Of a DNA stretch of 11,980 nucleotides, positions 1-11,980 are shown in pieces. The DNA comes from an uncultured bacterium (GTDB lineage Bacteria > UBP14 > UBA6098 > B30-G16). Each line of letters opens with the position of its first letter. Within the stretch, counting starts at the first letter, position 1. The position numbers and the translations under genes are program-made. Location of the stretch: contig CAYUDB010000072.1 of NCBI GenBank assembly GCA_964443405.1, positions 1 through 11,980 of the forward strand, given 5' to 3'. The notes beneath the pieces are model-generated. The model searched no databases. It saw only the letters and a program-made list of their open reading frames with translations, and had not been told where the DNA came from.

Positions 1-1
1 A

Positions 2-187
2 CCTTGTTTGGGTGCGTTGAATTGGTTGAACATACCGTTTGCTCTCATCGGGATTTTGGTTAGTGCCATAGCAATGTCGGGCGCAGGCGAAAAGAACAGA
101 ACGCTGAGCGTAATTGGTTTAGTTTGTTGTATAGTGGCGGTTCTTTTTGGCTTGGCACGTCTTGTTTTGGGCGGTGGCATACTCTAA
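2..187 (+). CDS. Partial CDS, 3' end of a gene that starts beyond the left edge; hydrophobic membrane-protein-like C-terminus (…IPFALIGILVSAIAMSGAGEKNRTLSVIGLVCCIVAVLFGLARLVLGGGIL*)
   Basis: Frame 2 is open for 61 codons from the window edge to TAA at 185-187, read by hand. The translation is strongly hydrophobic and resembles transmembrane helices. It is absent from the ORF track because it has no start codon in the window. It is convergent with the minus-strand gene ending at 231. Confidence 0.3.
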   Translation, partial: PCLGALNWLNIPFALIGILVSAIAMSGAGEKNRTLSVIGLVCCIVAVLFGLARLVLGGGIL

Positions 188-230
188 AGTATCATGTCAA
201 ACTTGGCATAGTTATTATCGCACGGCGCTT

Positions 231-926
231 TTAGTTTGTGCATGAGCGCCAAATGTAAAAAACATTGCGCCCGGCATTTTCTTGTTCTCGTCTGTGTGAA
301 TGCAGCCACGAATTCGAGAATGTTGAGTGCGGGAAAATTGCTACATTACGCACGCCAACTTGCATGAGCCGGTGTTTTATCTCCAATGGCAAATCAAAAA
401 AAGCTTTGCCATTGCGTAAAAATGTGCTGTGTGGAAAAATTTCGAAAAACTCTTCACCAACCTCATAGTCATCAGCATGAATGCATGGTCCTATATAAGC
501 TCTCATTGTTGATGCATCAATACCCTGCTTGAGAAAAAGTTGAACCGCATTTTCGCAAATGTCAAGAGCTGTGCCTCGCCAACCTGCATGCACTGCACAT
601 ATGGCGTTTGTTTTCGGCGAGAAAAAAACAACCGGTGCGCAATCGGCAACTCTTATTGCTAAGGCAGTATCTGCAAGCTCGGTAAAAAGCCCATCTGCCT
701 GTGGTGGTGGTTCGATGGAAAGGTTTTCGGTATCGACACGTAGTATGATGTTTGAATGTATTTGTTTTATGCGCGCAATGCTGCACGGCAGAATGGCGTT
801 TTGGTGAGCACAAGATGCCTCAAAAACATCGTGCGGCATGGGAGATTTTACGCTTAATGCCGCATATATTTCGTTGAGTGCATTGGGCATGTGCAAGATT
901 ACAGTGTTTTGCGGAAAAATATCCAT
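231..926 (-). CDS. pgeF: YfiH/PgeF (DUF152) family protein, annotated as purine nucleoside phosphorylase / peptidoglycan editing factor / laccase-domain protein
   Basis: The 231-aa ORF has an ATG at 926-924. It shows the family motifs ...VADCAPVVFF...AICAVHAGWRGT... and a C-terminal ...ENAGRNVFYIW that matches the E. coli YfiH C-terminus (…RRDKTTGRMASFIW). The N-terminal region is somewhat shorter than E. coli YfiH. No obvious SD is present upstream. Confidence 0.85.
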   Translation of the reverse strand: MDIFPQNTVILHMPNALNEIYAALSVKSPMPHDVFEASCAHQNAILPCSIARIKQIHSNIILRVDTENLSIEPPPQADGLFTELADTALAIRVADCAPVVFFSPKTNAICAVHAGWRGTALDICENAVQLFLKQGIDASTMRAYIGPCIHADDYEVGEEFFEIFPHSTFLRNGKAFFDLPLEIKHRLMQVGVRNVAIFPHSTFSNSWLHSHRREQENAGRNVFYIWRSCTN

Positions 927-939
927 AGTAATGAAAAAA

Positions 940-962
940 CGGGCAATTCGTTCAATTGCCCG
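940..962 (-). terminator. Probable rho-independent terminator after the SPFH gene, or an attenuator-like hairpin abutting the pgeF start
   Basis: A perfect 9-bp stem (cgggcaatt / aattgcccg) with a 5-nt loop lies at 940-962. On the minus strand it is followed directly by U6 (complement of A6 at 934-939). It sits between the SPFH stop (984) and the pgeF ATG (926), only about 7 nt before that ATG. Confidence 0.45.
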
Positions 963-983
963 TCGAAAGGGAGAGGTTTGTTG

Positions 984-1826
984 TTATTTTGATGTGGGTA
1001 AGATCATCGGCATGGATTTCAAATCATCAGGGATTATGACAATGGTATTGTTCTGCGAAGTTACAAGCTGCTTAAGCATTTCTATGCGATACCAAGCAAT
1101 GTAACTAGAGGTAAGTCCTTGTGCGATGATTTTGTTAGCTTCGCGTATGCCCTCTGCTTCGATGATCTTGCGTTCTTTTTCTTGACGTTCTTTGTCGAGT
1201 ACAAACTGCATACGCCTTGCCTCTTGGTCGGCAGATATTTTGGCATTGATAGCATTTTCGATATCCTTGGGCAACTTGACATTGCGTAAGAGAATGTTAT
1301 CGAGCAAAATGCCTTTGCCTGCAATTAAGGAATCGGCGCGCGACTTTATGGCAACTATGTATTCATCGCGACGACCAGAGTAAAGGTCTTCGGCTGTGTA
1401 CTTAACTGTGATGTCTCGAATGGCAGTGCGAAGCAAAGGGCGCACGATTTTTTCCTCGTAATCGAGACCTATTGTGCGATATAATTCGGGCGCATTTTCC
1501 GGGATTAGTTTATACCATGCTGTTAGGTCGAGGCGAACGAGCAAGCCTTCGGACGTGAGTGCATCGATAGCATCGTCGCCATATTCACCGCCCTCGGTTG
1601 TAGCGATGGACATAGTATAGGTTTGCAGTCGCGCATCGGTTTTCACTATGTTTAGAAGCGGGTTTACAAGATGAATACCGTTTTCGAGGTAGCCCGGCAT
1701 GACTTTGCCAAAAAGTACTTTGATACCAATGTGCCCCGAAGGAATTATCACAATCGGGTTTAGAAAAATTAGAACGAGCACCGCAATAATCACAATCACA
1801 ATAAACACACCAGAGATTTTTTTCAT
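984..1826 (-). CDS. SPFH / band-7 (prohibitin/HflC-like) membrane protein with an N-terminal transmembrane anchor
   Basis: The ORF track extends to 1892, but the better start is the ATG at 1826-1824 (MKKISGVFIVIVIIAVLVLIFLNP…). It is preceded by AAGGAGGA 5 nt upstream (revcomp of 1828-1840). One N-terminal TM helix is followed by an SPFH-like body with a charged coiled-coil tail (…QEARRMQFVLDKERQEKERKIIEAEGIREANKIIAQG…) typical of HflC/prohibitin family proteins. Confidence 0.9.
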   Translation of the reverse strand: MKKISGVFIVIVIIAVLVLIFLNPIVIIPSGHIGIKVLFGKVMPGYLENGIHLVNPLLNIVKTDARLQTYTMSIATTEGGEYGDDAIDALTSEGLLVRLDLTAWYKLIPENAPELYRTIGLDYEEKIVRPLLRTAIRDITVKYTAEDLYSGRRDEYIVAIKSRADSLIAGKGILLDNILLRNVKLPKDIENAINAKISADQEARRMQFVLDKERQEKERKIIEAEGIREANKIIAQGLTSSYIAWYRIEMLKQLVTSQNNTIVIIPDDLKSMPMILPTSK

Positions 1827-1886
1827 TTTGTCCTCCTTTACTAAATAGTAAATGCTGGAGCAGCTTTGAGCAACGTTTTTTTTGAA

Positions 1887-1910
1887 GTTCACAAATCGTT
1901 AACTGTGAAC
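1887..1910. promoter_or_regulatory. Perfect inverted repeat GTTCACA-N10-TGTGAAC in the SPFH upstream region; candidate operator for a dimeric regulator
   Basis: The 7-bp arms at 1887-1893 and 1904-1910 are exact reverse complements with a 10-bp spacer. The spacer holds the GTTAAC palindrome. The repeat lies 61-84 bp upstream of the SPFH start codon and just downstream of the purM terminator. Confidence 0.3.
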
Positions 1911-1915
1911 AAATC

Positions 1916-1940
1916 AAAAAAAAGCGCCCATCGCAGGCGC
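1916..1940 (-). terminator. Rho-independent terminator downstream of purM
   Basis: On the minus strand a GC-only 5-bp stem (ggcgc/gcgcc, 1924-1928 paired with 1936-1940, 7-nt loop) is followed by U8 (complement of A8 at 1916-1923). It lies 26-50 nt after the purM stop at 1966. Confidence 0.55.
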
Positions 1941-1965
1941 CTTGAAAGTGGAATTTCGTGTCGTT

Positions 1966-2988
1966 TCAATTGGAGTAGAGTTTTACATCGCCAATGCCAT
2001 TTTCGATTGTGCCGCATTCGAAAGCACCGAAGCTATTGAGTTCGTTGAGAAGGGTTTGTGCATTTTCGCGCGCGAGCACAAAGATAAAACCTACACCCAT
2101 GTTGAAAGCACGAAACATTTCATCGTTGTCGATGTCGCCCAAACGTTCGATGAGTGAGAAAATTTTTGGCACTGCAATTGCGTTTTTATCGATGCGAGCG
2201 CAAGTGTCCTTCGGCAAAACTCTGCATAGATTTCCGGTGATGCCGCCGCCTGTTATGTGTGCCATGCCGTGGATATCACATGTGGCACGCGCAATTTGCA
2301 TGGCACTAAGATATAAAGTATGTGGTGCCATGAGAGCTTCGGTTAAAGTGCTTTCTAGGAAAGGGACATATGTTTGTGGTGTGAGTTTGGCATGTTCGAA
2401 GAGCACTTTGCGGGCGAGAGAGTATCCATTTGTGTGCAAACCGTTTGAAGGTAGCGCGATAATTGTGTCACCTTTCTTAATGTTTGCACCGGTGATAAGC
2501 TGCGATTTTGCCACTTCTCCAATAATCACACCTGCTAAATCGAAATGTGATGGCGCGTATAATCCGGGCATTTGAGCTGTTTCGCCACCGATGAGTGCGC
2601 AGTTGGCATTTTTGCAACCCTCTGCTAATCCGGCAACAATATCGGCAATGGTTTGTGGCGGTAGATCGCAGTGTGCAATATAATCGAGAAAAAACAGCGG
2701 TTTTGCGCCGTGAACAGCTATATCGTCCACACAGTGGTGCACAAGGTCGATGCCGATGGTTTGGTAGTTACCAATTTCGGCAGCGATCATTATCTTTGTG
2801 CCCACACCATCTGCCGATGAAAGCATAAGTCGATCGTTGCCAATATCGTATGCACCTGCAAAAAGTCCAATTTCGGAAGCCACTTGCGGAGTGAAAGTGC
2901 TTTTCGCTAATGCAGCTATGCGTTTTTTTGCCTCGTCTGCGGCGCAAATGTCCACACCAGCAGATGAATACGTTATTTTCTCGCTCAT
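1966..2988 (-). CDS. purM: Phosphoribosylformylglycinamidine cyclo-ligase (AIR synthetase), purine biosynthesis
   Basis: The 340-aa protein begins MSEKITYSSAGVDI… and has the conserved blocks …GLFAGAYD…DGVGTKIMIA…VNDIAVHGAKPLFFLDY…ALIGGETAQMPG…HITGGG… characteristic of PurM. ATG is at 2988-2986 with a weak GGTGGA upstream. Confidence 0.95.
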   Translation of the reverse strand: MSEKITYSSAGVDICAADEAKKRIAALAKSTFTPQVASEIGLFAGAYDIGNDRLMLSSADGVGTKIMIAAEIGNYQTIGIDLVHHCVDDIAVHGAKPLFFLDYIAHCDLPPQTIADIVAGLAEGCKNANCALIGGETAQMPGLYAPSHFDLAGVIIGEVAKSQLITGANIKKGDTIIALPSNGLHTNGYSLARKVLFEHAKLTPQTYVPFLESTLTEALMAPHTLYLSAMQIARATCDIHGMAHITGGGITGNLCRVLPKDTCARIDKNAIAVPKIFSLIERLGDIDNDEMFRAFNMGVGFIFVLARENAQTLLNELNSFGAFECGTIENGIGDVKLYSN

Positions 2989-3066
2989 TTAAATGTCCAC
3001 CGTAGTTGAGTTGAACAGAACAATAATTTAGATAGCAAGTGTTTTGCAAATGTTTTCTGTGCGGAT

Positions 3067-5769
3067 CTATTTCATGAAAACAGCACGTTTATTGGCAACT
3101 TTGCCATCGGGTGTCTCGATGTGGATAAAATACATGCCCGAACCTAGATTATCGGGTTGCCAGATGTATTTTTCTGTAACTCGCGCGGCTGCAGGTGCTG
3201 CATTTTTTTGCCATACAAGCTTGCCCGAAAGCGAATAAATGTATACATTTGCGCCAGCCGGTGCATCGATTTCGAGTGCTGCGTTGAAAGGGTTTGGAAA
3301 TATCTGAGTTTCGAAAGACTGTGGGGTGGATAATATGGTTTCGGAAATTTTATCGGGCAAAAATCCACCGAGTTTCATGGTCCAGACAGTGGGGTAGCTC
3401 AAAAGAGGCTCAGTTGTATAACCGGTAACGAAAACCGAACCGTCAAGCCCTGTGCAAATAGCTGCAACCGAATCTTTTCCCGATTTTGAAAACTCACGAG
3501 TGAAAGTTGTGTCGCCATCGTCATCGATTCCAAAAATAAGCCAGTTTGGTTCCATAGAAGGCAATCTGCGGCGCAAACCTGCACCTGTGAAGCCATCAGC
3601 GGTTGCAGTTATAGCAAATGCTACATAACCCTGATCGAAATAGTGCTTTGTCCAAGTTATTGTGCCCGATGTGGAAATTTTTGCGAGATAGATATTTGAA
3701 AACCGGTTTATGCTCGCAGAGTATCTTTCGCCTGCAACGACATAACCATCGTCAACGGCAATTATGTCGCAGCCCGTATGGCGTGTTGTATCGCCAATGA
3801 TGCAAGTCCATAAACTTTCGGCAGCTGCAGAAAATTTTTGCACAAACACCTTAGACGGCGGTACAGCAGGTATTGGATCGACAATCCATTTTCCAACAAT
3901 GGCAAATGTGCCATCTGTAGCGCGACAAATGGCTTCGGGAATATAATTGGTGCCAAAAACAACAGTCTCAGTTTCAACGCCGTCGGAATTTGTAAGTATG
4001 AGTGCTGCCTGAGAAATTCCTTCGGCAGTTATTGCAGCAGCAATAGCGTAACCTGTTGGAGTAGCAACAACATCCACAGCTTTCCCGCCCTCTGGTATGG
4101 GATAGGTCCTTTCCCAAATAACACTGCCAAGCGAATCGATTTTTGCAAGCGCTGGAGCATTATCTTGGACAAATGCAACGACCATGTTTCCGTGGTCTAT
4201 CGCTTGTGCCAAAGCATACGCTTTCCCAGAAATTGCCAAGTTTTCATGGAATACGAGATTGCCGCCAGCGTCGTAGCGGAATAAAAATGGTTCGATGACG
4301 CCACCAAATTCATAATTACCCACACCAAAGCAGCCCGAATCGGCACAGGCAACTAAATCGACACCATAGGTTTGGAGATTAGTGAAAGCTCTTTCCCAGC
4401 CGCCAGTTATGCCTGATGTGATACTAAGTGATTCTTGAGGGCTTACACCGTCATCATAGATCGCGTCGATTTTGTAGAGGTAGTTTGTAAGCTCGGTGGG
4501 CACGGTTTCATCGATGAAAAACCGAGCGGGTGTGGTTGCCAGAAGTTCGCCATTGCGCCAGATACGATAGTTGCGCACGGGAACTGTGATTCTGGTTGGC
4601 GCGTCCCAAGTTAGCTTTATGTGGAGGTCGCGCTTTTGCTGAGAGGCGAAATTTATAGGTGGGCGCTTGGAAACGTAATTTGGAACGATGTTGCCGACTG
4701 TGCTTGTATGTGCGGTCAATCCAGACGGAACTTCGGTGGGCAACGCATAAAATCCGTCAGCAACGCCGCCCCAACCTAAGTTCAGATGATAATAATGTAT
4801 GGAGTCTTCCATTTTGTAGCCATCGCAGACGAGGCAGTGACCAGCCTCGTCGCCCGAGAAAGAGAGCAAAGTTGGCAGATGGTCGAGTGCATTTGTGCGC
4901 ATGACCTCATAAGCGCTTGAAGCAATATTTGCGGCGCGTGCATAATCCCAAGCACCGATAAGGACCATTGGTATGGCAGATGTATTTGCGGCGGAGCCTT
5001 CGTCGGCATATTGCATGCCCAAAACCACTCCACATGCATAACTGATGCGTGCGATCATGTCGGCAGTTGGGTGATTTCCGCTGGCATTGTAATCGATTTC
5101 GGGAATTGAAGCGAGAGTTGCATCGATCCATATTCGCGGTGATGTGGCAGAAGAATAATAACTGTTACGTTCATCGAACATCATCGAGCGCGGATACTCC
5201 CAGTAGTTAACAAGTTGGGCGAATGCGGTGGCAACGCAACCAACTGGGCAAAGGTTTTCGGTGGTAGGGTCAACTGGGCAATAAATATTGTAAGGGTCAC
5301 CTTGATTCCACTGGGTATCGACAAAAGGTCCAACTTCATCAATTGCAGCGGTTTCCAGCATTGTGTAAACCGTGCCGTGCAACAGTTTGTGCCAAATGGC
5401 TTCGTTATGAGCAAGAATTTTTCTATCCAGTTGTGGAACAAAGTTTTGTCGAATTGACATATCGGCGCATAATATATCAAAAAGCGGATTTGACATGTTT
5501 TTTGCGCCGAAATCGTTATCGAATGAATATGCAACAATTGGTGCAATGGTTGTTGCAGGGGCAATCACGATGTAACCTTTCGGCTCGAGAATTGCCAAAT
5601 AAAAGAGGATTTGCCCCTCTTTCTCGATTGTTTCGAAATTTTGGATGGTGCGATTTCCTGCAAAAGCTTTGAATTCTGCCACTTTTTGCGCGGAAAAATA
5701 ATCGACTGGTGCGGCGAAACAAATGTACGTTGCAATAAATGCGATGATAACTAGTGTTGTTTTTTTCAT
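3067..5769 (-). CDS. Secreted multidomain cysteine peptidase, family C10 (streptopain/SpeB/PrtT-like), with an N-terminal signal peptide and pro-region, beta-propeller-like repeats, an FN3-like domain and a C-terminal T9SS (Por) sorting domain
   Basis: ATG at 5769-5767 is preceded by GGAGAG. The signal peptide reads MKKTTLVIIAFIATYICFAA. The C10 active-site blocks match SpeB: QWNQGDPYNIYCP…GCVATAFAQLVNYWEYP (catalytic Cys at about residue 178) and GHCLVCDGY…YHLNLGWGGVADGFYALP (catalytic His region). The middle region has repeated G..A…DG..V/A.G…W motifs and one FN3-like segment. The last ~75 aa (…FPNPFNAALEIDAPAGANVYIYSLSGKLV…GMYFIHIETPDGKVANKRAVFMK) match the T9SS CTD pattern. Confidence 0.9.
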   Translation of the reverse strand: MKKTTLVIIAFIATYICFAAPVDYFSAQKVAEFKAFAGNRTIQNFETIEKEGQILFYLAILEPKGYIVIAPATTIAPIVAYSFDNDFGAKNMSNPLFDILCADMSIRQNFVPQLDRKILAHNEAIWHKLLHGTVYTMLETAAIDEVGPFVDTQWNQGDPYNIYCPVDPTTENLCPVGCVATAFAQLVNYWEYPRSMMFDERNSYYSSATSPRIWIDATLASIPEIDYNASGNHPTADMIARISYACGVVLGMQYADEGSAANTSAIPMVLIGAWDYARAANIASSAYEVMRTNALDHLPTLLSFSGDEAGHCLVCDGYKMEDSIHYYHLNLGWGGVADGFYALPTEVPSGLTAHTSTVGNIVPNYVSKRPPINFASQQKRDLHIKLTWDAPTRITVPVRNYRIWRNGELLATTPARFFIDETVPTELTNYLYKIDAIYDDGVSPQESLSITSGITGGWERAFTNLQTYGVDLVACADSGCFGVGNYEFGGVIEPFLFRYDAGGNLVFHENLAISGKAYALAQAIDHGNMVVAFVQDNAPALAKIDSLGSVIWERTYPIPEGGKAVDVVATPTGYAIAAAITAEGISQAALILTNSDGVETETVVFGTNYIPEAICRATDGTFAIVGKWIVDPIPAVPPSKVFVQKFSAAAESLWTCIIGDTTRHTGCDIIAVDDGYVVAGERYSASINRFSNIYLAKISTSGTITWTKHYFDQGYVAFAITATADGFTGAGLRRRLPSMEPNWLIFGIDDDGDTTFTREFSKSGKDSVAAICTGLDGSVFVTGYTTEPLLSYPTVWTMKLGGFLPDKISETILSTPQSFETQIFPNPFNAALEIDAPAGANVYIYSLSGKLVWQKNAAPAAARVTEKYIWQPDNLGSGMYFIHIETPDGKVANKRAVFMK

Positions 5770-7016
5770 CGTAACTCTCCATCGATTAAAAGGATTTTCT
5801 TGTAGTAATATTCGTTTGATGTTCTAAGGACCACAAAATAAATACCGGTTTCACAATTTAAAAGCTCGATTTTGCAGTTTTTAGAAAAAGTTTTTTCAAA
5901 TACTTGTTTTCCAGTTAACGAGAAAATTTCTATCGAAGCTGGTGAAAAGTTATAATCATTTAGAGTAATTAAATTATATGATAAGGAAATTTTTTCAGTT
6001 GTTGAACTATTTTCATATATCGAAGAACTTTCTGCTATGTCAACTCTAATAATCATAGTATCAATGAAACAACTATTTTGTGCAATTAAACTTACATTAT
6101 ATACTCCATTTTCAAAGTAATGCACTGGATTATTATCGTATGAAGCACTTCCGTCATCAAAATTCCATTCAAAAAATGTTGCATTCTCACATAGATTTGT
6201 AAAAAACACAGTATTCTCTAAAATTTCAACGCTGAAATTTGCATTTGGCACTGGTGAAAATTCATAACATACATCTCGCATTTCCAAAAAAGTCTCTGAT
6301 GCAATATTTTGCAAAAATAAACAAGTTTCAGAATCAAGTGTATGAAAAAAGCTACTTCGTAAATAGGCTTTATCAAACATAATAGCGTAAAAAATACATG
6401 CCCCAAGATAACTTCCCTCAACAGATGGATGACTATTGTCTGCATCCCAAAGATTTATCGTTTCATCAGCAAGTTTTGCATTAACAAATGCTCGCCCTAC
6501 TGGCACTAAAATTGCGTCGCTCATCTGCGCAAATCGAAAATATACTGCCTCTAATGTATCAGTCATTTCCTCAAAATCTTCAAATGCTATGCTGCAAAAT
6601 ATATCAATACACTGAATTCCTCCAAAACGTCGCCCCCATGTTGCATACATTACCGGTAATGAACAATTATAATCACATAAACTATCTAAAACTCGCAAAC
6701 CAATTATACTTTGCGTCTCACGTAAATATTCTATTGTCGGCATTTGACTTTGATCTTGCAATATTACATAATCCCAACGCCGAGATCTCAGTAAACTCAA
6801 CGTCGGTTCATATGTACTGTGCATATATAATGAATATCCACCAGGTGTGCTAGTTTCATAAATTAATGTGTCTCCTAAACTTTCCGCAATTCTTGATATA
6901 AGATCTGGCAAATTATTGTAAAAAGTATAACTGTTTCCTATAAACAAAACTGTTTTCGTACATCCAAAAATTACTGTTGAAATAAACAAAAAAATTATAA
7001 ATACATACTTTCTCAT
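5766..7016 (-). CDS. Secreted SGNH/GDSL-like hydrolase (DUF4886-like catalytic domain) followed by a PKD domain and a T9SS C-terminal sorting domain; possible lipoprotein
   Basis: ATG at 7016-7014 is preceded by GGAGGA. The N-terminus MRKYVFIIFLFISTVIFGC is a signal peptide with a Cys at residue 19. SGNH block I reads VLFIGNSYT and block V reads WDADNSHPSVEGSYLGACIFY. The PKD signature reads FEWNFDDGSASYDNNPVHYFENGVYNVSLIAQN. The C-terminus …IEIFSLTGKQVFEK…ETGIYFVVLRTSNEYYYKKILLID is CTD-like. Its TGA stop overlaps the ATG of the C10 peptidase (ATGA, 5769-5766). Confidence 0.8.
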   Translation of the reverse strand: MRKYVFIIFLFISTVIFGCTKTVLFIGNSYTFYNNLPDLISRIAESLGDTLIYETSTPGGYSLYMHSTYEPTLSLLRSRRWDYVILQDQSQMPTIEYLRETQSIIGLRVLDSLCDYNCSLPVMYATWGRRFGGIQCIDIFCSIAFEDFEEMTDTLEAVYFRFAQMSDAILVPVGRAFVNAKLADETINLWDADNSHPSVEGSYLGACIFYAIMFDKAYLRSSFFHTLDSETCLFLQNIASETFLEMRDVCYEFSPVPNANFSVEILENTVFFTNLCENATFFEWNFDDGSASYDNNPVHYFENGVYNVSLIAQNSCFIDTMIIRVDIAESSSIYENSSTTEKISLSYNLITLNDYNFSPASIEIFSLTGKQVFEKTFSKNCKIELLNCETGIYFVVLRTSNEYYYKKILLIDGELR

Positions 7017-7083
7017 AATATTTCCTCCAGTAAATTATTTATTTTATTAAGTAAATATCTTACTTTGATTCTTAAACTAAATA

Positions 7084-7113
7084 AAGAAACTACCAAAATT
7101 GATAGTTTCTTTA
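7084..7113 (-). terminator. Possible intrinsic terminator between the ligase gene and the SGNH hydrolase gene
   Basis: A perfect 10-bp stem (aaagaaacta / tagtttcttt) with a 10-nt loop lies 44 nt downstream of the ligase stop. The downstream tract is only moderately U-rich on the minus strand (UAUUUAGUUUAAG). The plus-strand side shows AUAGAAUUUUUU. The stem is AT-rich. Confidence 0.35.
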
Positions 7114-7156
7114 TAGAATTTTTTAAGCGAGTTTATTAATTTTGTTTGTCAGTTAA

Positions 7157-8365
7157 TTATACTAAATCAAACAAAATATCATTCTTTTTTCCATAATGCC
7201 TATATATTTTACCATCACTTATAAGCTTTTCAAGCTTTTGTTCTACTAAATATGCAGGCAATGGAACTCGCATATACACATAACTTAATGGTGTATCTTT
7301 TGATATAGTTTCCATAAATATTCTATCTAGAGATACATTACTTACAAGATTTTTACTATATGTATAAGAAATCCAATTAGTAAAATCAATATTCTTTGCA
7401 AATACTCTTATAAGTTCTGTGCATATAACAAACTTATCATTGCTATCTCCAAAAATATCATAGACAAAATCTGCAGGACATAGTTTCTTTTGTGCCAGAG
7501 ATTTTAGTGTATCTAAACTATGTTCATTCGCTTCAAAACTATCTGCTACACTTAATGCATTCGGTATTATCGTATTTAATAATAATTTGCTAACTGCAAT
7601 TTCTTTTTCATTAATTATAAAAGTTGCAGCAGCACCGTTCAAAATTGCATTATATCTATTCAAACCATATTCATATATATTTGGCTTTAATAATTTCGTT
7701 TTTGGAGTATTTGCCAAATATTTCGAAAATAATGCAAACAAAAGCCCTAGTTCATAAACCATTCGCCAATGTATTTGACTATCAAATGCACGAAATTCTA
7801 ACGTTACTTTGCGAGGATATTTAATACATACATCTGTTCCCCACAATAATGGAGAATTTTCAACATCAATTAAAGTCATTGGTCGCGCACAATGACCTGC
7901 ATTATCTCTCAAACGAATTGATTTAAACTCTCCATCAATGCTTGGAGACGAACATGAAATTGCTATAAACGCTGGAACATATGGTAATATCGCATTATGA
8001 ATTTTAACAATATCTTCATAAGATGAAAAACTACCAAGATGAACATGTCCACCAGCTGGATTTTCATCTATATATCTAAATCCACCAGGTACTATTACAC
8101 ATCCATGCTTTTGCGCAACTCGTTGAGCTGTTGTATAGGCAATAAAAATTTTTTCCTCAAGCTCATAAACATTTGTAGTCATACCTATACGAAGTTCTAA
8201 CAAATCAATATCCTCTCCAATACCATACGAAGGTAAAATATTCCTTAGCTCCAAAAGTATTTTCTCATACTTTTGCTTATCTGCCGAAAAGCCTGTATCA
8301 ATATCATTTACAAAAACTTCCCAGTCAATGCCAAGAGTTAGTTTTTCTAAAATGTGACTACTCAT
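7157..8365 (-). CDS. YbdK / glutamate-cysteine ligase family 2 (GCS2) carboxylate-amine ligase
   Basis: The 402-aa protein has an ATG at 8365-8363 preceded by AAGGAGAG. Its blocks align by eye to E. coli YbdK: LTLGIDWEVFVND vs FTLGIELEMQVVN; HGCVIVPGGFRY vs HHLEICGGGTHPF; GGHVHLG vs GQHVHVG; LPYVPAFIAISCSSPS vs RFVPHFIALSAASPY; TLEFRAFD vs TVEVRVMD. Confidence 0.8.
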   Translation of the reverse strand: MSSHILEKLTLGIDWEVFVNDIDTGFSADKQKYEKILLELRNILPSYGIGEDIDLLELRIGMTTNVYELEEKIFIAYTTAQRVAQKHGCVIVPGGFRYIDENPAGGHVHLGSFSSYEDIVKIHNAILPYVPAFIAISCSSPSIDGEFKSIRLRDNAGHCARPMTLIDVENSPLLWGTDVCIKYPRKVTLEFRAFDSQIHWRMVYELGLLFALFSKYLANTPKTKLLKPNIYEYGLNRYNAILNGAAATFIINEKEIAVSKLLLNTIIPNALSVADSFEANEHSLDTLKSLAQKKLCPADFVYDIFGDSNDKFVICTELIRVFAKNIDFTNWISYTYSKNLVSNVSLDRIFMETISKDTPLSYVYMRVPLPAYLVEQKLEKLISDGKIYRHYGKKNDILFDLV

Positions 8366-8533
8366 TTTCTCTCCTTAACTATCTTTTTCATTAATGTAAA
8401 AGATAATTTTCACTATACTTTTTTCTATATTATCAAGTATATTAAGTTTTTAATTAATAAAATATACTTTTTTAATTTCAGAAAAAAGTTTATAGTGAAA
8501 ACTATATTTCACATAATAAGTTTTCAATAATTT

Positions 8534-9679
8534 CTACGCACGTGGAATTATTACAGCTTCACTGCGAGGTGTTGCGTAAGTTCCATTAGTTGCCCAAACT
8601 TGCATGCGTAAATCCATTTCACTATCTGGTCGAACATACATATAATTTACTGTAATTGGATCACCAAATTCCTCATCATTTGCTAATACCAAATAAAACA
8701 TAGGAATCGGAAGTTCATCCCATCTCAACATCATTTCAGATGCATCATATCTCAAATTTTTTATAGACATATACGCTTCAAGTGTAACTCTTATCGAAGC
8801 TGTTGCATCACTTTCATCATTTCCTGAAATACTTCTTACACGAAAATCATGCGTTCCAAAATACGGATCTTTCATTATCCAATATGTATTTTTAGTCTCC
8901 GCGACAATTGTATAATTCTCTTCAGAAGATTTTTTCATTTCAATACGATATTCTTTCGCATTATCAGCAGCTATCCACTTAAAGCGAGCTGCTTTATTAT
9001 CATATATAAATCCTGTAGGTGGCAATAATTTATGTTGTATAGGTCTATTCCAAACTTCAAAACCATATTCAGAAAGATGTTGATCGTATTTTTTATATGG
9101 TAACTTTATATAAAGCCAATTTCTAATCTTTGCCAAAACTTCTATATATTCCTTCCGTTTAAAATCTCTTTTTTGAGTTGCAGTAGTCGATATTGCCTGA
9201 GTTTCATTTGAATTACGAACTGCATCGGAATAAATTGAAAGTTGTGTAATAATATCATTTTTAACTTGCGCATCGATTTGCTGAGGTGTTCCATCCCAAT
9301 CATTAAGATGGGGGATAGTTACACTTCTTACAAGCGTGATGAGTTCATTTGAAACTTTTGGCAAAAGAATATCAACACCAAGTCGATGGAACATAATGTT
9401 TGACAATTCTTTGTCGGCAACAACACGAATAAACTTTTTCATGTCGTAAATTGTTTCGATAAGCACATTTTGCTCTTCGGCAGCCTTTTTGACAAGTGCT
9501 TCTTTTGAGATACGCAAATCTAACACTTGCGCCTGAATTGTGCGAAACTCATGAAAAACTGTATTAAACTCGGCGAACAATGCAGCAGGAAGCACCCAAG
9601 CTTCGGCAGCATATTTGTTGTTTGCATCGGTTATCATGTAACCTTGCGTTATAAGGTCGTCAAATGATACTGTAGCCAT
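8534..9679 (-). CDS. Hypothetical cytoplasmic protein: alpha-helical N-terminal domain of about 215 aa plus two C-terminal fibronectin-type-III-like beta-sandwich repeats
   Basis: ATG at 9679-9677 is preceded by AAGGGGGA. No signal peptide is present. C-terminal segments such as PPTGFIYDNKAARFKWIAADNAKEYRIEMKK…YTIVAETKNTYWIMKDP…FRVRSISGNDESDATASIRVT and …LRWDELPIPMFYLVLANDEEFGDPITVNYMYVRPDSEMDL…VWATNGTYATPRSEAVIIP have an FN3-like pattern (W…Y…L…Y/F hydrophobic alternation). The N-terminal domain has no motif I can name. Confidence 0.6.
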   Translation of the reverse strand: MATVSFDDLITQGYMITDANNKYAAEAWVLPAALFAEFNTVFHEFRTIQAQVLDLRISKEALVKKAAEEQNVLIETIYDMKKFIRVVADKELSNIMFHRLGVDILLPKVSNELITLVRSVTIPHLNDWDGTPQQIDAQVKNDIITQLSIYSDAVRNSNETQAISTTATQKRDFKRKEYIEVLAKIRNWLYIKLPYKKYDQHLSEYGFEVWNRPIQHKLLPPTGFIYDNKAARFKWIAADNAKEYRIEMKKSSEENYTIVAETKNTYWIMKDPYFGTHDFRVRSISGNDESDATASIRVTLEAYMSIKNLRYDASEMMLRWDELPIPMFYLVLANDEEFGDPITVNYMYVRPDSEMDLRMQVWATNGTYATPRSEAVIIPRA

Positions 9680-9898
9680 TTTGTCCCCCTTGTTTGTTTG
9701 TTTTCACTAAAAATATACACATTTTTTTTGAGAAAAAAACTTTTTTTTTCATTTCATCAAACTTTTTTTCAAAATCTTTTGTAAATGAATTATATGCACA
9801 ATCAAAGTATTTTGTTAAGCTTTTGCAGATGTAATTTGTTTATAGAAATATAGTTAAGCATTTAGCAAAGTTTAGTATATCACTCAAAAAGAAAGTTT

Positions 9899-10345
9899 TT
9901 CATCAAGTAAAAATCTTATTTCATTAAGCAAAGTATCCATTTCATCAAATAAAAATTTCATTTTAATAGTTCCACAAACCATTTCATTAACCAAAAATTT
10001 TATTTCATTAACCAAACCTTTTATTTCAACAACTCAAAAAAACTTTTTCACAAGTAAAAATCTTTTTACATAATTTCCATTTATTATTTCATTAACAAAA
10101 CTTTCTTCAGAAGTATTTCCAAATTTCATTTTATTAAATCCAAATTTTTTGTCATCAAGTAAAAATTATTCAGCAACAGTTCCAAACTTTTCAGAATCAA
10201 GTAAAAATTCTTTATCAATAGATAAATTTTTCATTTTATTAGTTCCAAATTTCATTTCATTAAATCCAAAACTTTTTTCATCAACTAGAAATTTTATTTC
10301 AGTTCATCCAAATTATTTATTATTACTTCCAAAAAAGTTTTTCAT
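9899..10345. repeat. Degenerate tandem array of about 21 copies of a 21-bp unit (consensus approximately TTTCATYAASYAAAAATTTTAT), with a superimposed 63-bp higher-order period, in an 800-bp non-coding AT-rich spacer
   Basis: TTCA(T/C/G) cores begin at 9899, 9920, 9941, 9957, 9983, 10004, 10025, 10047, (10066), 10088, 10106, 10125, (10150), 10169, 10190, (10212), 10230, 10251, 10277, 10298 and 10341. Spacings cluster at 21 (or 16+26, 41-43). Each unit carries an A4-6T3-4 tract. The 63-bp super-repeat is clear between 10181-10240, 10241-10300 and 10301-10345. Confidence 0.8.
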
Positions 10346-10388
10346 AAAAAATTTGAGTAAATAATCAAATAAAAAATCATAAAAGAAA

Positions 10389-10419
10389 GGCTACCCAATT
10401 ACTTGAGTAGCTTTTTTTT
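10389..10419. terminator. Hairpin with flanking A/T runs; a bidirectional intrinsic terminator. It is strongest on the plus strand (T8) and also closes the minus-strand 420-aa gene.
   Basis: The stem is ggctac…gtagc(t), with internal caa/ttg pairing in the loop. The plus strand has the stem followed by TTTTTTTT at 10412-10419. The minus strand has the stem followed by CUUUCUUUUAUGAUUUUUU. It lies 65-95 nt downstream of the stop at 10484. Confidence 0.5.
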
Positions 10420-10483
10420 CTTTCTCATCGACCAAAAATAATTATATTGACAGTCGAGTTTTTCTGTAAAACTACAAAAACTT

Positions 10484-11746
10484 TCAGATAGTCATGCCGG
10501 CAAATTTGCAATTGACAAAATCTTTATCAACATTTACGTAACCAATGTGGTTCATTCCGGAAATTGAAAGTTTGATTGGCAAAACTTTTGTTTCATTTTC
10601 AAAATGTATTTCGACAGTTTTGTCACGCAAATTTTGAGTCGATGCGATAATTATTGCAGTTTTGCCTTCATGTTGAACTTTTGCCAAACAATTTCCATTG
10701 TCAATAACAAATTCATCGCACACAGCCAAAGCAAGTTTATTCTCTGTAACTTTTTGTGCATTAACCTTATGCTCTTTAAAAAGAACTCGCATTTGAGGTA
10801 TAATCGCATATTTATTCATCCAAACTTTAATCACATCATTTGGGTTTGTAGCACAAATAAATTTTTCATTAATGTCATCAAAAGTTGCTATAAAGAAAAA
10901 TTTTGCGCTATCATCTAGAAGAGTTTCGTCAGTTTCAAAATCTTCCATAAGCGCCCAAACTTCCGAAAAAGGTGTTTTTGAAAACTTTCGTGCATCATCT
11001 TTTGGAACAAAAATAGTAACGCCAGTGTTTCCAATGCCAGATTCACGTAAATTTATAAACGCAGAGGAGCTTTGTTTTTTTGAATCGGCTTTTTCATCAT
11101 CGATATTAACTGATGTAGAGATCTCAAAAAATGGATTTTCTACATCACAATTAACGTTAACATTTCCGACAAATGCTTTTTTCTTCACTTGGAACAGAAA
11201 ATTCTTTGAACTTTTCAATAAAGTAGTTTTATCATGTAAAATTTTGAACGGCAAAAACTTTTCGGAAAGCGCTGAAAATATTCCTTCCTTTCGTGAACGA
11301 AAATAAATGCCAGTTGCAGTTTTTACTGTAACTCCATAAAAAACTTTGGACATTAGCAAATTTTGTTTGTTTATTTTTGAGAAATTTGTAATATTACACC
11401 CACGAATAGGCGACATGCGCAAATTTGCAAATGCATTTGAACAATCAAACTCATCATATCCATCGCCATCAATGTCGCCTAAGAAAAATGAGTTTTTCGT
11501 TATGTGAAATTCTTTTGCAAACTGCGAAAGTATTTTTTCTGTTTGATCGTTTGTTAGAGCAATAATATCTCCAACTTCGGGCATAATTGAATTTTTATCG
11601 AACGTTCTTTCAATAATAAATTCTATACCGCGAAGTTTTGAGGAAATCTTTGCAGTATCGGCAGTAGTATTTTGAGCGCGACATTTAAGAGTGAAATTGT
11701 TGTCATTCGCTCCAAAAACATCGATAACTTTGGCTATAATTTGCAT
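10484..11746 (-). CDS. Hypothetical protein, 420 aa, no signal peptide, with a single DxDxDG calcium-binding-like loop (FLGDIDGDGYDEF)
   Basis: The ORF track starts at a TTG at 11758. The better start is the ATG at 11746-11744 (MQIIAKVIDVF…), preceded by GGAGG with a 5-nt spacer (revcomp of 11747-11760 is ATTTGGAGGTTGAA). I recognise no catalytic motif. Composition is low-GC, like its neighbours. Confidence 0.7.
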   Translation of the reverse strand: MQIIAKVIDVFGANDNNFTLKCRAQNTTADTAKISSKLRGIEFIIERTFDKNSIMPEVGDIIALTNDQTEKILSQFAKEFHITKNSFFLGDIDGDGYDEFDCSNAFANLRMSPIRGCNITNFSKINKQNLLMSKVFYGVTVKTATGIYFRSRKEGIFSALSEKFLPFKILHDKTTLLKSSKNFLFQVKKKAFVGNVNVNCDVENPFFEISTSVNIDDEKADSKKQSSSAFINLRESGIGNTGVTIFVPKDDARKFSKTPFSEVWALMEDFETDETLLDDSAKFFFIATFDDINEKFICATNPNDVIKVWMNKYAIIPQMRVLFKEHKVNAQKVTENKLALAVCDEFVIDNGNCLAKVQHEGKTAIIIASTQNLRDKTVEIHFENETKVLPIKLSISGMNHIGYVNVDKDFVNCKFAGMTI

Positions 11747-11902
11747 TTCAACCTCCAAATTTTTTCTAGCAACCAGTTAATCATTTATAGAGTAAAAACT
11801 TTTATAATTTGTGTCAAGTAGTTTTTTCACTTCAACGTAAAAACTGTAAATTTTATTTAATCGATAAACTTTTTCAAATCATCATTAATTTTTGATAATT
11901 AC

Positions 11903-11939
11903 AAAAAAAACTCCGAACTTTTATTAATTAAGTTCGGAG
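11903..11939 (-). terminator. Strong rho-independent terminator for a minus-strand gene lying beyond the right edge of the window
   Basis: A perfect 10-bp stem (ctccgaactt / aagttcggag, 11911-11920 and 11930-11939) has a 9-nt loop. On the minus strand it is followed immediately by U8 (complement of A8 at 11903-11910). Confidence 0.55.
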
Positions 11940-11980
11940 CTTATGCGAAAAAACTTTTTAATTGAATAAAATTTTCAGTC

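Follow-up and report, generated by a model that had tools for sequence, protein, structure and literature searches.

Most gene clusters of atypical composition in bacterial genomes do not lie next to transfer RNA (tRNA) genes (PMC2718499), and reviews caution that intragenomic variation in composition is often over-read as transfer (PMC4462595), a point that counts for native heterogeneity in the present case. At the scale of neighbouring genes, canonical overlaps form by deletion and often arise through disruption of the upstream stop codon, which adds coding sequence to the upstream gene (PMC1480536). The locus described here is a compositional boundary that falls on a canonical overlap. It lies in contig CAYUDB010000072.1 (assembly GCA_964443405.1) of an uncultured bacterium placed in UBP14; UBA6098; B30-G16, all 11,980 nucleotides (nt) of which were analysed and are called the window; the window is one entire contig, and binning error is therefore irrelevant. 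On its minus strand an AT-rich gene for a DUF4886/SGNH-like protein is joined, through a four-base ATGA overlap, to a gene of higher GC (guanine plus cytosine) content for a C10 peptidase, and each protein ends in a sorting tail of the type IX secretion system (T9SS). In its properties the feature is most like the normal margin of an AT-rich accessory block together with a native-foreign operon pair, both of which are well described (PMC4462595, PMC2718499, PMC1480536).

The compositional step

The two parts of the window differ strongly in composition. GC content is 0.456 over positions 1-5769 (the left half) and 0.302 over positions 5770-11980 (the right half), and the difference extends both to GC content at third codon positions (GC3), which ranges per gene from 0.39 to 0.475 on the left and from 0.164 to 0.252 on the right (about 0.43 vs about 0.22), and to intergenic DNA (0.35-0.46 vs 0.16-0.22). 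Under a model with one change point, the maximum-likelihood break falls at 5716; it improves the log-likelihood by 155, and its 2-log-unit support interval spans 5692-5785. All models fitted by dynamic-programming segmentation retained a break at 5720, with no second break within the left half, and the Bayesian information criterion was lowest with two segments, tied with four. Because the break at 5720 is kept in all segmentations and the criterion reaches its minimum with two segments, the change is stepwise; neither a gradual ramp nor an additional break in the 5' region of the peptidase gene (5300-5720, GC about 0.40) is supported by the segmentation. At this resolution the GC step coincides with the ATGA overlap, which falls inside the support interval, and the sharp step at the junction claimed in the original prediction is thereby upheld, with a change point at 5716-5720. 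Its size had been put at 20 points, which is too large: the mean step is about 15 points, and only at GC3 does it reach about 21. Spot counts of 52, 28 and 23% GC, made by hand, were roughly right (computed values 0.49, 0.28 and 0.33), and the right half, which had been described as uniformly low in GC, contains 200-nt windows that span 0.19-0.42.

The shift is not confined to GC content. Third codon positions, counted on the coding strand, favour C in the left half (G:C 252:504) and G in the right half (221:134; Fisher P=1e-19). Of the measures that had been proposed as checks of the junction, GC content is step-like, and GC3 and third-position G:C both shift. Plus-strand GC skew reverses its sign, from +0.08 to -0.17; its change point, at 6007 (region about 5949-6148), lies some 240-290 nt farther right than that of GC content, and gene orientation is constant throughout. 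The encoded proteins differ as well, the residues F, Y, M, I, N and K together making up 0.29 of the total on the left and 0.35 on the right, and G, A, R and P 0.27 and 0.18. For A/T-ending codons of the four-fold boxes a comparison of the preferences of the two halves gives r=0.64, short of significance (P=0.08). With the codon-position regressions of Lawrence and Ochman applied to the computed values, the left genes match a genome of 42-48% GC, and the right genes about 25% GC at positions 1+2 and about 32% at position 3. The two halves have had different histories.

The ATGA overlap and the upstream C-terminus

The plus strand reads TCAT at 5766-5769, that is ATGA on the minus strand, so that the TGA of the upstream DUF4886 gene does overlap the ATG of the peptidase gene as had been predicted, the two codons having three bases in common. 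The peptidase gene's own Shine-Dalgarno site, GGAGAG, was also found where it had been expected, within the 3' end of the low-GC gene (Table 1). Both junction reading frames are complete. Hydrophobic N-termini, which have the appearance of signal peptides, are visible in both proteins, and both carry full T9SS tails that score above the curated cut-offs, with 30.0 and 33.1 bits for PF18962 (cut-off 27) and 35.9 and 34.2 bits for TIGR04183 (cut-off 23).

The end of the upstream protein is unusual for its family. Among 19 homologues whose C-termini were read, 18 stop 3-5 residues past the conserved lysine of the T9SS tail, with ends such as …TKFIK, …QKIIIL and …KPVVYVK. The window protein ends in …KKILLIDGELR, nine residues past that lysine, and its extra codons, GAT GGA GAG TTA CGA TGA, are exactly the leader of the peptidase gene, including the Shine-Dalgarno site. 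This suggests that the upstream gene has no stop codon of its own and ends at a TGA that is made up from the ATG of the peptidase gene and the first A of the following AAA (Lys) codon, with which the signal peptide of the peptidase opens. The ATGA overlap looks like a by-product of juxtaposition and does not by itself speak for long co-evolution. The premise that a 4-base overlap across a compositional boundary is unusual finds no support: four-base overlaps are frequent in the loci that were fetched for comparison, and only about a third of atypical clusters are adjacent to tRNA genes (PMC2718499).

The transcription context is consistent with an operon. In a scan for terminator-like hairpins, which was a pattern scan only, the last hairpin before the DUF4886 gene follows the GCS2-like gene upstream of it and the first past the junction follows purM, the intervals from DUF4886 to C10 and from C10 to purM being free of them. 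Because there is no terminator-like site until after purM, co-transcription of the esterase-like DUF4886 gene, the peptidase gene and purM is probable, and the three genes may form one transcription unit that spans the compositional boundary. The junction pair has several of the attributes expected of a coupled pair: the two genes lie on the same strand with an ATGA overlap, no terminator was found between them by the pattern scan, and the Shine-Dalgarno site lies within the upstream gene. Translation of the peptidase would rely on its own GGAGAG site, possibly aided by the predicted coupling. A comparison of synteny with relatives had been proposed as a check: neither the DUF4886-C10 nor the C10-purM adjacency was found in the neighbourhoods of the homologues examined, all of them distant, and there is no shared synteny around the nearest DUF4886 and C10 homologues.

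A hint exists that the boundary in synonymous sites lies slightly within the upstream gene. Over its last 38 codons GC3 is 0.37, compared with a background of 0.22 (P about 0.02-0.05; post hoc), and the third-position G:C ratio is 6:13 over the last 80 codons, a preference for C like that of the left half, and 50:20 over the first 336 (P=0.003; post hoc, with small counts); the GC-skew change point near 6007 is a further hint. Codon positions 1+2 of those end codons are still AT-rich in type. These values would fit a boundary within the T9SS domain, with a foreign esterase and PKD passenger recombined onto a resident sorting-domain end and the operon downstream of it, for which we see only a slight chance. 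As the tests are post hoc and the counts small, recombination within the tail is kept as a hint and not as a finding. If it were true, DNA coding for T9SS tails would be a docking site for the exchange of cargo genes between lineages.

Signals shared across the joint

Do the two halves belong to one organism? Several features that are largely independent of GC content are common to both. Strong GGAGG or GGAGAG sites precede genes in both halves, and T9SS tails of type A are present on both junction proteins. The correlation of tetranucleotide z-scores between left and right is 0.42 and delta* is 71.6, compared with medians of 0.49 and 50.6 within loci and 0.20 and 167 between loci in a calibration on 17 loci cut into 6-kb pieces. 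Between loci, values this good were reached only by pairs of related or orthologous loci, and no such pair at least 10 GC points apart has a delta* as low as 71.6. As a discriminator on its own delta* was nevertheless set aside as weak, the right half being equally near to unrelated Planococcaceae loci (72-78).

Avoidance of particular words agrees in the same way. GGCC is absent from the whole contig, where about 21 copies are expected (0 vs 18 expected on the left, 0 vs 3 on the right); GATC stands at 0.52 and 0.53 times expectation on the left and right, and AGCT at 1.5 times in both. Both halves are also poor in GTAC and CATG and have the same rho(GC), 1.47. The absence of GGCC together with the depletion of GATC, GTAC and CATG, with GGCC likewise missing from L018, a contig related to the right half that is described below, suggests pressure from HaeIII-type and other restriction systems on this lineage. 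GGCC is also depleted in two Cloacimonadota loci (L012 and L015). From these oligonucleotide patterns the halves probably share one host or broad lineage, and the signature backs the same broad lineage more firmly than the same genome.

An origin of the right half in Bacteroidota, to which named Bacteroidia matches among the DUF4886 homologues might point, is doubtful, given a strong Shine-Dalgarno site before every right-half gene. Bacteroidota rarely use such sites.

Gene content of the window

All eight long open reading frames (ORFs) lie on the minus strand (Table 1), and in reading order the DUF4886 gene is the last of the AT-rich block and the C10 gene the first of the mid-GC segment. 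The gene labels given earlier hold for the C10/T9SS and DUF4886/PKD/T9SS proteins, purM, the SPFH protein and PgeF; that of the YbdK-like ligase is weak, and the FN3 label of the 381-residue protein finds no Pfam support. The peptidase matches PF01640 with 125 bits (cut-off 26) over the full profile, and its sequence contains GCVATA and GHCLVCDG motifs, which we take, by comparison with SpeB, to hold the catalytic Cys and His. For the product of 7157-8365 the match to GCS2/YbdK models spans only about 45 residues (102-152), with scores far under the equivalog cut-offs, and any kinship with YbdK/GCS2 must be very distant. The true start of the SPFH gene is probably ATG 1829, with a perfect AGGAGG 4 nt upstream and an N-terminus that reads MKKISGVF, and the 420-residue gene has its probable start at ATG 11746, behind GGAGG, rather than at TTG 11758.

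Table 1. Features of the 11,980-nt window, in order of position
Feature	Positions	Strand	Remarks
Mid-GC segment	1-5769		45.6% GC; pgeF, SPFH, purM, C10; spacers 57-78 nt
pgeF	231-926	minus	domain search
Terminator-like hairpin	964-938	minus	pattern scan
SPFH protein gene	984-1892	minus	domain search; start in ORF list GTG 1892, probable start ATG 1829
Terminator-like hairpin	1943-1921	minus	pattern scan
purM	1966-2988	minus	domain search
C10 (streptopain-like) peptidase gene	3067-5769	minus	900 residues; I69 propeptide, T9SS type A tail; GC 0.465, GC3 0.425
ATGA overlap	5766-5769	minus	DUF4886 TGA (5768-5766) overlaps C10 ATG (5769-5767)
DUF4886/SGNH-like protein gene	5766-7016	minus	416 residues; PKD, T9SS type A tail; GC 0.317, GC3 0.213
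Codons D-G-E-L-R	5769-5783	minus	C-terminal extension of 4-5 residues past the usual T9SS end KKILLI; identical with the C10 leader
AT-rich block	5770-11980, up to the contig end		30.2% GC; spacers long, 16-22% GC
Shine-Dalgarno site GGAGAG of the C10 gene	5775-5780	minus	5 nt before the ATG; read as Gly-Glu codons in the upstream gene
Terminator-like hairpin	7114-7081	minus	pattern scan
YbdK/GCS2-like gene	7157-8365	minus	weak domain match
381-residue protein gene	8534-9679	minus	FN3 label without Pfam support
21-nt periodic array	about 9884-10340	minus	between the 420- and 381-residue genes
Terminator-like hairpin	10411-10390	minus	pattern scan
420-residue protein gene	10484-11746	minus	424 residues if TTG 11758 is taken as the start

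The AT-rich block has no mark of a mobile element within the window. Searches of the right half with Pfam, NCBIfam and PHROGs found no mobility or phage genes, its proteins have no matches in IMG/VR or in the phage and plasmid collections, and the window contains no tRNA, transfer-messenger RNA or other Rfam family. With zero matches, the idea that the right half is a phage, a plasmid or a defence island was rejected. Two AT-rich inverted repeats with arms of 31-33 nt that are 79-81% complementary lie in intergenic DNA of the block (8394-8514 and 11843-11979), the second at the extreme end of the contig.

Part of the block is conserved elsewhere. The 420-residue protein matches no family and has 10 homologues among 1.8 billion representatives; one of these, 79% identical, led to two ENA contigs, L018 and L019, in which the order of the window is repeated (420-residue gene, array, 381-residue gene) at 78-81% nucleotide identity. 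The ENA entries for this relative are ERZ28615714 (sample SAMEA7428479) and ERZ15185739. The ratio of non-synonymous to synonymous substitution (dN/dS) between the window and L018 is 0.11 and 0.10 for the two genes, with dS 1.2 and 0.8, which argues that the tested block genes are real and conserved under purifying selection, and that the two copies are old. Third positions are less AT-rich in L018 (GC3 0.35, and 0.32 in a flanking membrane-protein gene), and positions 1-4658 of that contig have no GGCC (6 expected), no GTAC and almost no GATC. These features are compatible with a relative of lower GC to whose own composition the block conforms, and also with a donor pool within the same broad lineage. 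Both contigs carry the distal part of the block, and L018 stops short of the junction.

A structural model of the 420-residue protein (predicted local distance difference test, pLDDT, 72; predicted template modelling score, pTM, 0.71) resembles a galactose-mutarotase-like beta sandwich at the level of fold only (E about 1e-7, template modelling score about 0.35-0.39), and the protein bears a conserved D-x-D-G-Y-x-E motif. On the strength of this fold the suggestion that the array and the 420-residue protein form a replicon, with iterons and a Rep protein, was rejected. The array itself consists of about 20 degenerate 21-nt units, with a heptad-like minus-strand frame (FLLDEK / FGNTSEK) that is interrupted by TAA and TGA. 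Its counterpart in L018 (2927-3379) is an uninterrupted ORF of 150 codons that aligns in register and without gaps, with dN/dS 0.70. The array is a repeat-protein gene that is decaying or evolving fast, or else a non-coding series of phased A/T tracts.

Discussion

How did two segments so unlike in composition come to share four bases? The account that we favour, and to which we give an even chance, is that the joint is real, that the AT-rich block is of separate origin and that the spacer between them has been lost. An AT-rich accessory block that evolved at about 25-32% GC, probably in some member of the same broad lineage with a lower GC content or in that lineage's flexible gene pool, would have come to lie directly upstream of a mid-GC core segment (C10, purM, SPFH and pgeF) with loss of the spacer; the last gene of the block, left with no stop at the end of its secretion domain, would then read 4-5 codons through the ribosome-binding leader of the C10 gene. 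Most likely the joint is real and lies within the genome of one bacterium, which uses type IX secretion. Of the earlier suggestion of a very precise and ancient fusion of foreign DNA to a native operon, the fusion fits best and the age is doubtful, codon usage being without any sign of equilibration.

A number of observations weigh against this account. No independent contig crosses the joint, and either half could represent the bulk of the genome. The window contains no integrase, transposase or tRNA, and the far edge of the block lies beyond the contig. Collections of phages, plasmids and viral contigs gave no relatives of the right-half proteins. For the two junction genes the nearest homologues share 42% and 37% identity, and scans with purM and with the 381-residue protein gave no close relatives: the best purM matches were 45% identical in the scan of genome contigs, spread over many phyla, and 48% in the metagenome scan, in which the 381-residue protein had no matches at all. 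The signature calibration was small, given its 17 loci and 6-kb pieces, and the left half correlates as well with two other loci (L011 and L014, 0.41-0.43) as it does with the right half. Finally, one homologue of the DUF4886 protein (P0009) is also long-tailed at its C-terminus, and the extension is therefore suggestive of read-through and not proof of it.

The block could instead be native, as in the heterogeneous genome that the original prediction also offered: a vertically inherited AT-rich patch that is kept so by weak selection or low expression under AT-biased mutation, or by some other local regime, and that simply ends at an ordinary operon boundary. Its gene order is partly conserved, under purifying selection, in a relative at dS 0.8-1.2; it lacks mobility genes and any hallmark of phage, plasmid or defence DNA; the avoidance of GGCC, GATC and GTAC and the dinucleotide biases are common to both halves; and the GC3 of the gene flanking the block in L018 is close to that of the block there (0.32 vs 0.35). 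A long resident, however, should match its neighbours in synonymous choices, and here GC3 is 21 points apart, the third-position preference for G or C is reversed and the skew flips; moreover the proteins themselves are biased to AT-rich codons, and the left half shows no similar patchiness. For these reasons we regard a native patch as unlikely, while taking it seriously. The polarity could also be the reverse, with an AT-rich genome in which it is the mid-GC half (C10, purM, SPFH and pgeF) that is acquired or atypical. The best purM matches, 43-48% identical and distributed over many phyla, point to no clear vertical neighbours. Yet the left half consists of housekeeping genes with short spacers, and its codon-position GC is, by the regressions applied above, consistent with a genome of 42-48% GC, whereas the ORFan-like genes and long, very AT-rich spacers of the right half are typical of accessory DNA; an acquired or atypical left half is accordingly given a very low probability.

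A different kind of explanation is that the joint was made by the assembler, from two co-occurring organisms of about 45% and about 30% GC, perhaps of the same phylum. The contig is single, short and derived from a metagenome, the proteins of the window were found on no other contig (each junction protein occurs once in a collection of 15 billion proteins), and composition, codon preference and GC skew all change within the same 300 nt; no left-half gene was seen on L018, the relative of the right half, and a signature common at the level of the phylum would be expected of two related organisms also. What speaks against an artefact is the joint itself. Both genes are complete and on one strand, with a canonical overlap inside a zone of 15 nt that a random join at a shared k-mer would, by rough reasoning, hit about 1-2% of the time. 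Between 5600 and 5950 no stretch of more than 16 nt recurs in the fetched loci or in the rest of the window, and the longest k-mer common to the joint and the rest of the window is 12 nt. Shine-Dalgarno use, T9SS tails, palindrome avoidance and GC-normalised signatures agree across it. The chimera that the original prediction offered as one of its alternatives is thus disfavoured (complete genes, no repeat at the joint, and agreement in Shine-Dalgarno sites, T9SS tails and signature), and we consider it improbable.

The locus is not a new kind of feature; it is a fresh instance, in a poorly sampled lineage, of features already described, and it opens no new question. Its use is as an example for triage, in that a GC step that falls on a gene overlap need not mean either an assembly error or an exotic fusion. 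The tests that bear on the choice can be made without reads: whether the genes at the joint are intact, whether any sequence is shared there, whether the GC-normalised signature and the avoidance of restriction sites agree across it, and whether the upstream protein overruns the usual end of its family. If the joint is real, it provides a clean case of a compositionally foreign gene for a secreted enzyme that has been wired into a native operon, with a peptidase and purM, in a lineage that has barely been sampled.

Comparison with known systems places the locus near three of them. With contigs that are chimeric between genomes it shares a shift of several compositional measures at one point, on a short metagenomic contig of which there is no independent copy; it differs from them in that the junction genes are intact, nothing is common at the joint, and the two sides are alike in translation signals, secretion tails and palindrome avoidance. 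It resembles genomic islands and atypical clusters more closely. There is an abrupt change of GC, GC3 and codon usage over several kb, the block is the more AT-rich part and carries ORFan-like accessory genes, and it does not lie beside a tRNA gene, as is the case for most such clusters (PMC2718499, PMC4462595). In contrast to a typical island, a single edge is in view, no integrase, transposase, tRNA or visible flanking repeat occurs in the window, a diverged relative has kept part of the block, and the GC-normalised signature agrees with that of the neighbours; of the properties by which islands are recognised, that of composition is present, while mobility genes, and tRNA genes or direct repeats, are absent within the window.

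The likeness to the native-ORFan operon pairs described in E. coli is seen at the junction itself (PMC1480536). The DUF4886 gene is no ORFan, having more than 1000 homologues, co-transcription is here a prediction, and the foreign gene stands upstream, unlike the E. coli ORFan, which is more often the downstream member. In both, a compositionally foreign gene is set against a native one on the same strand with a four-base ATGA overlap, the two genes are functionally unrelated, and the upstream protein is a few residues longer (PMC1480536).

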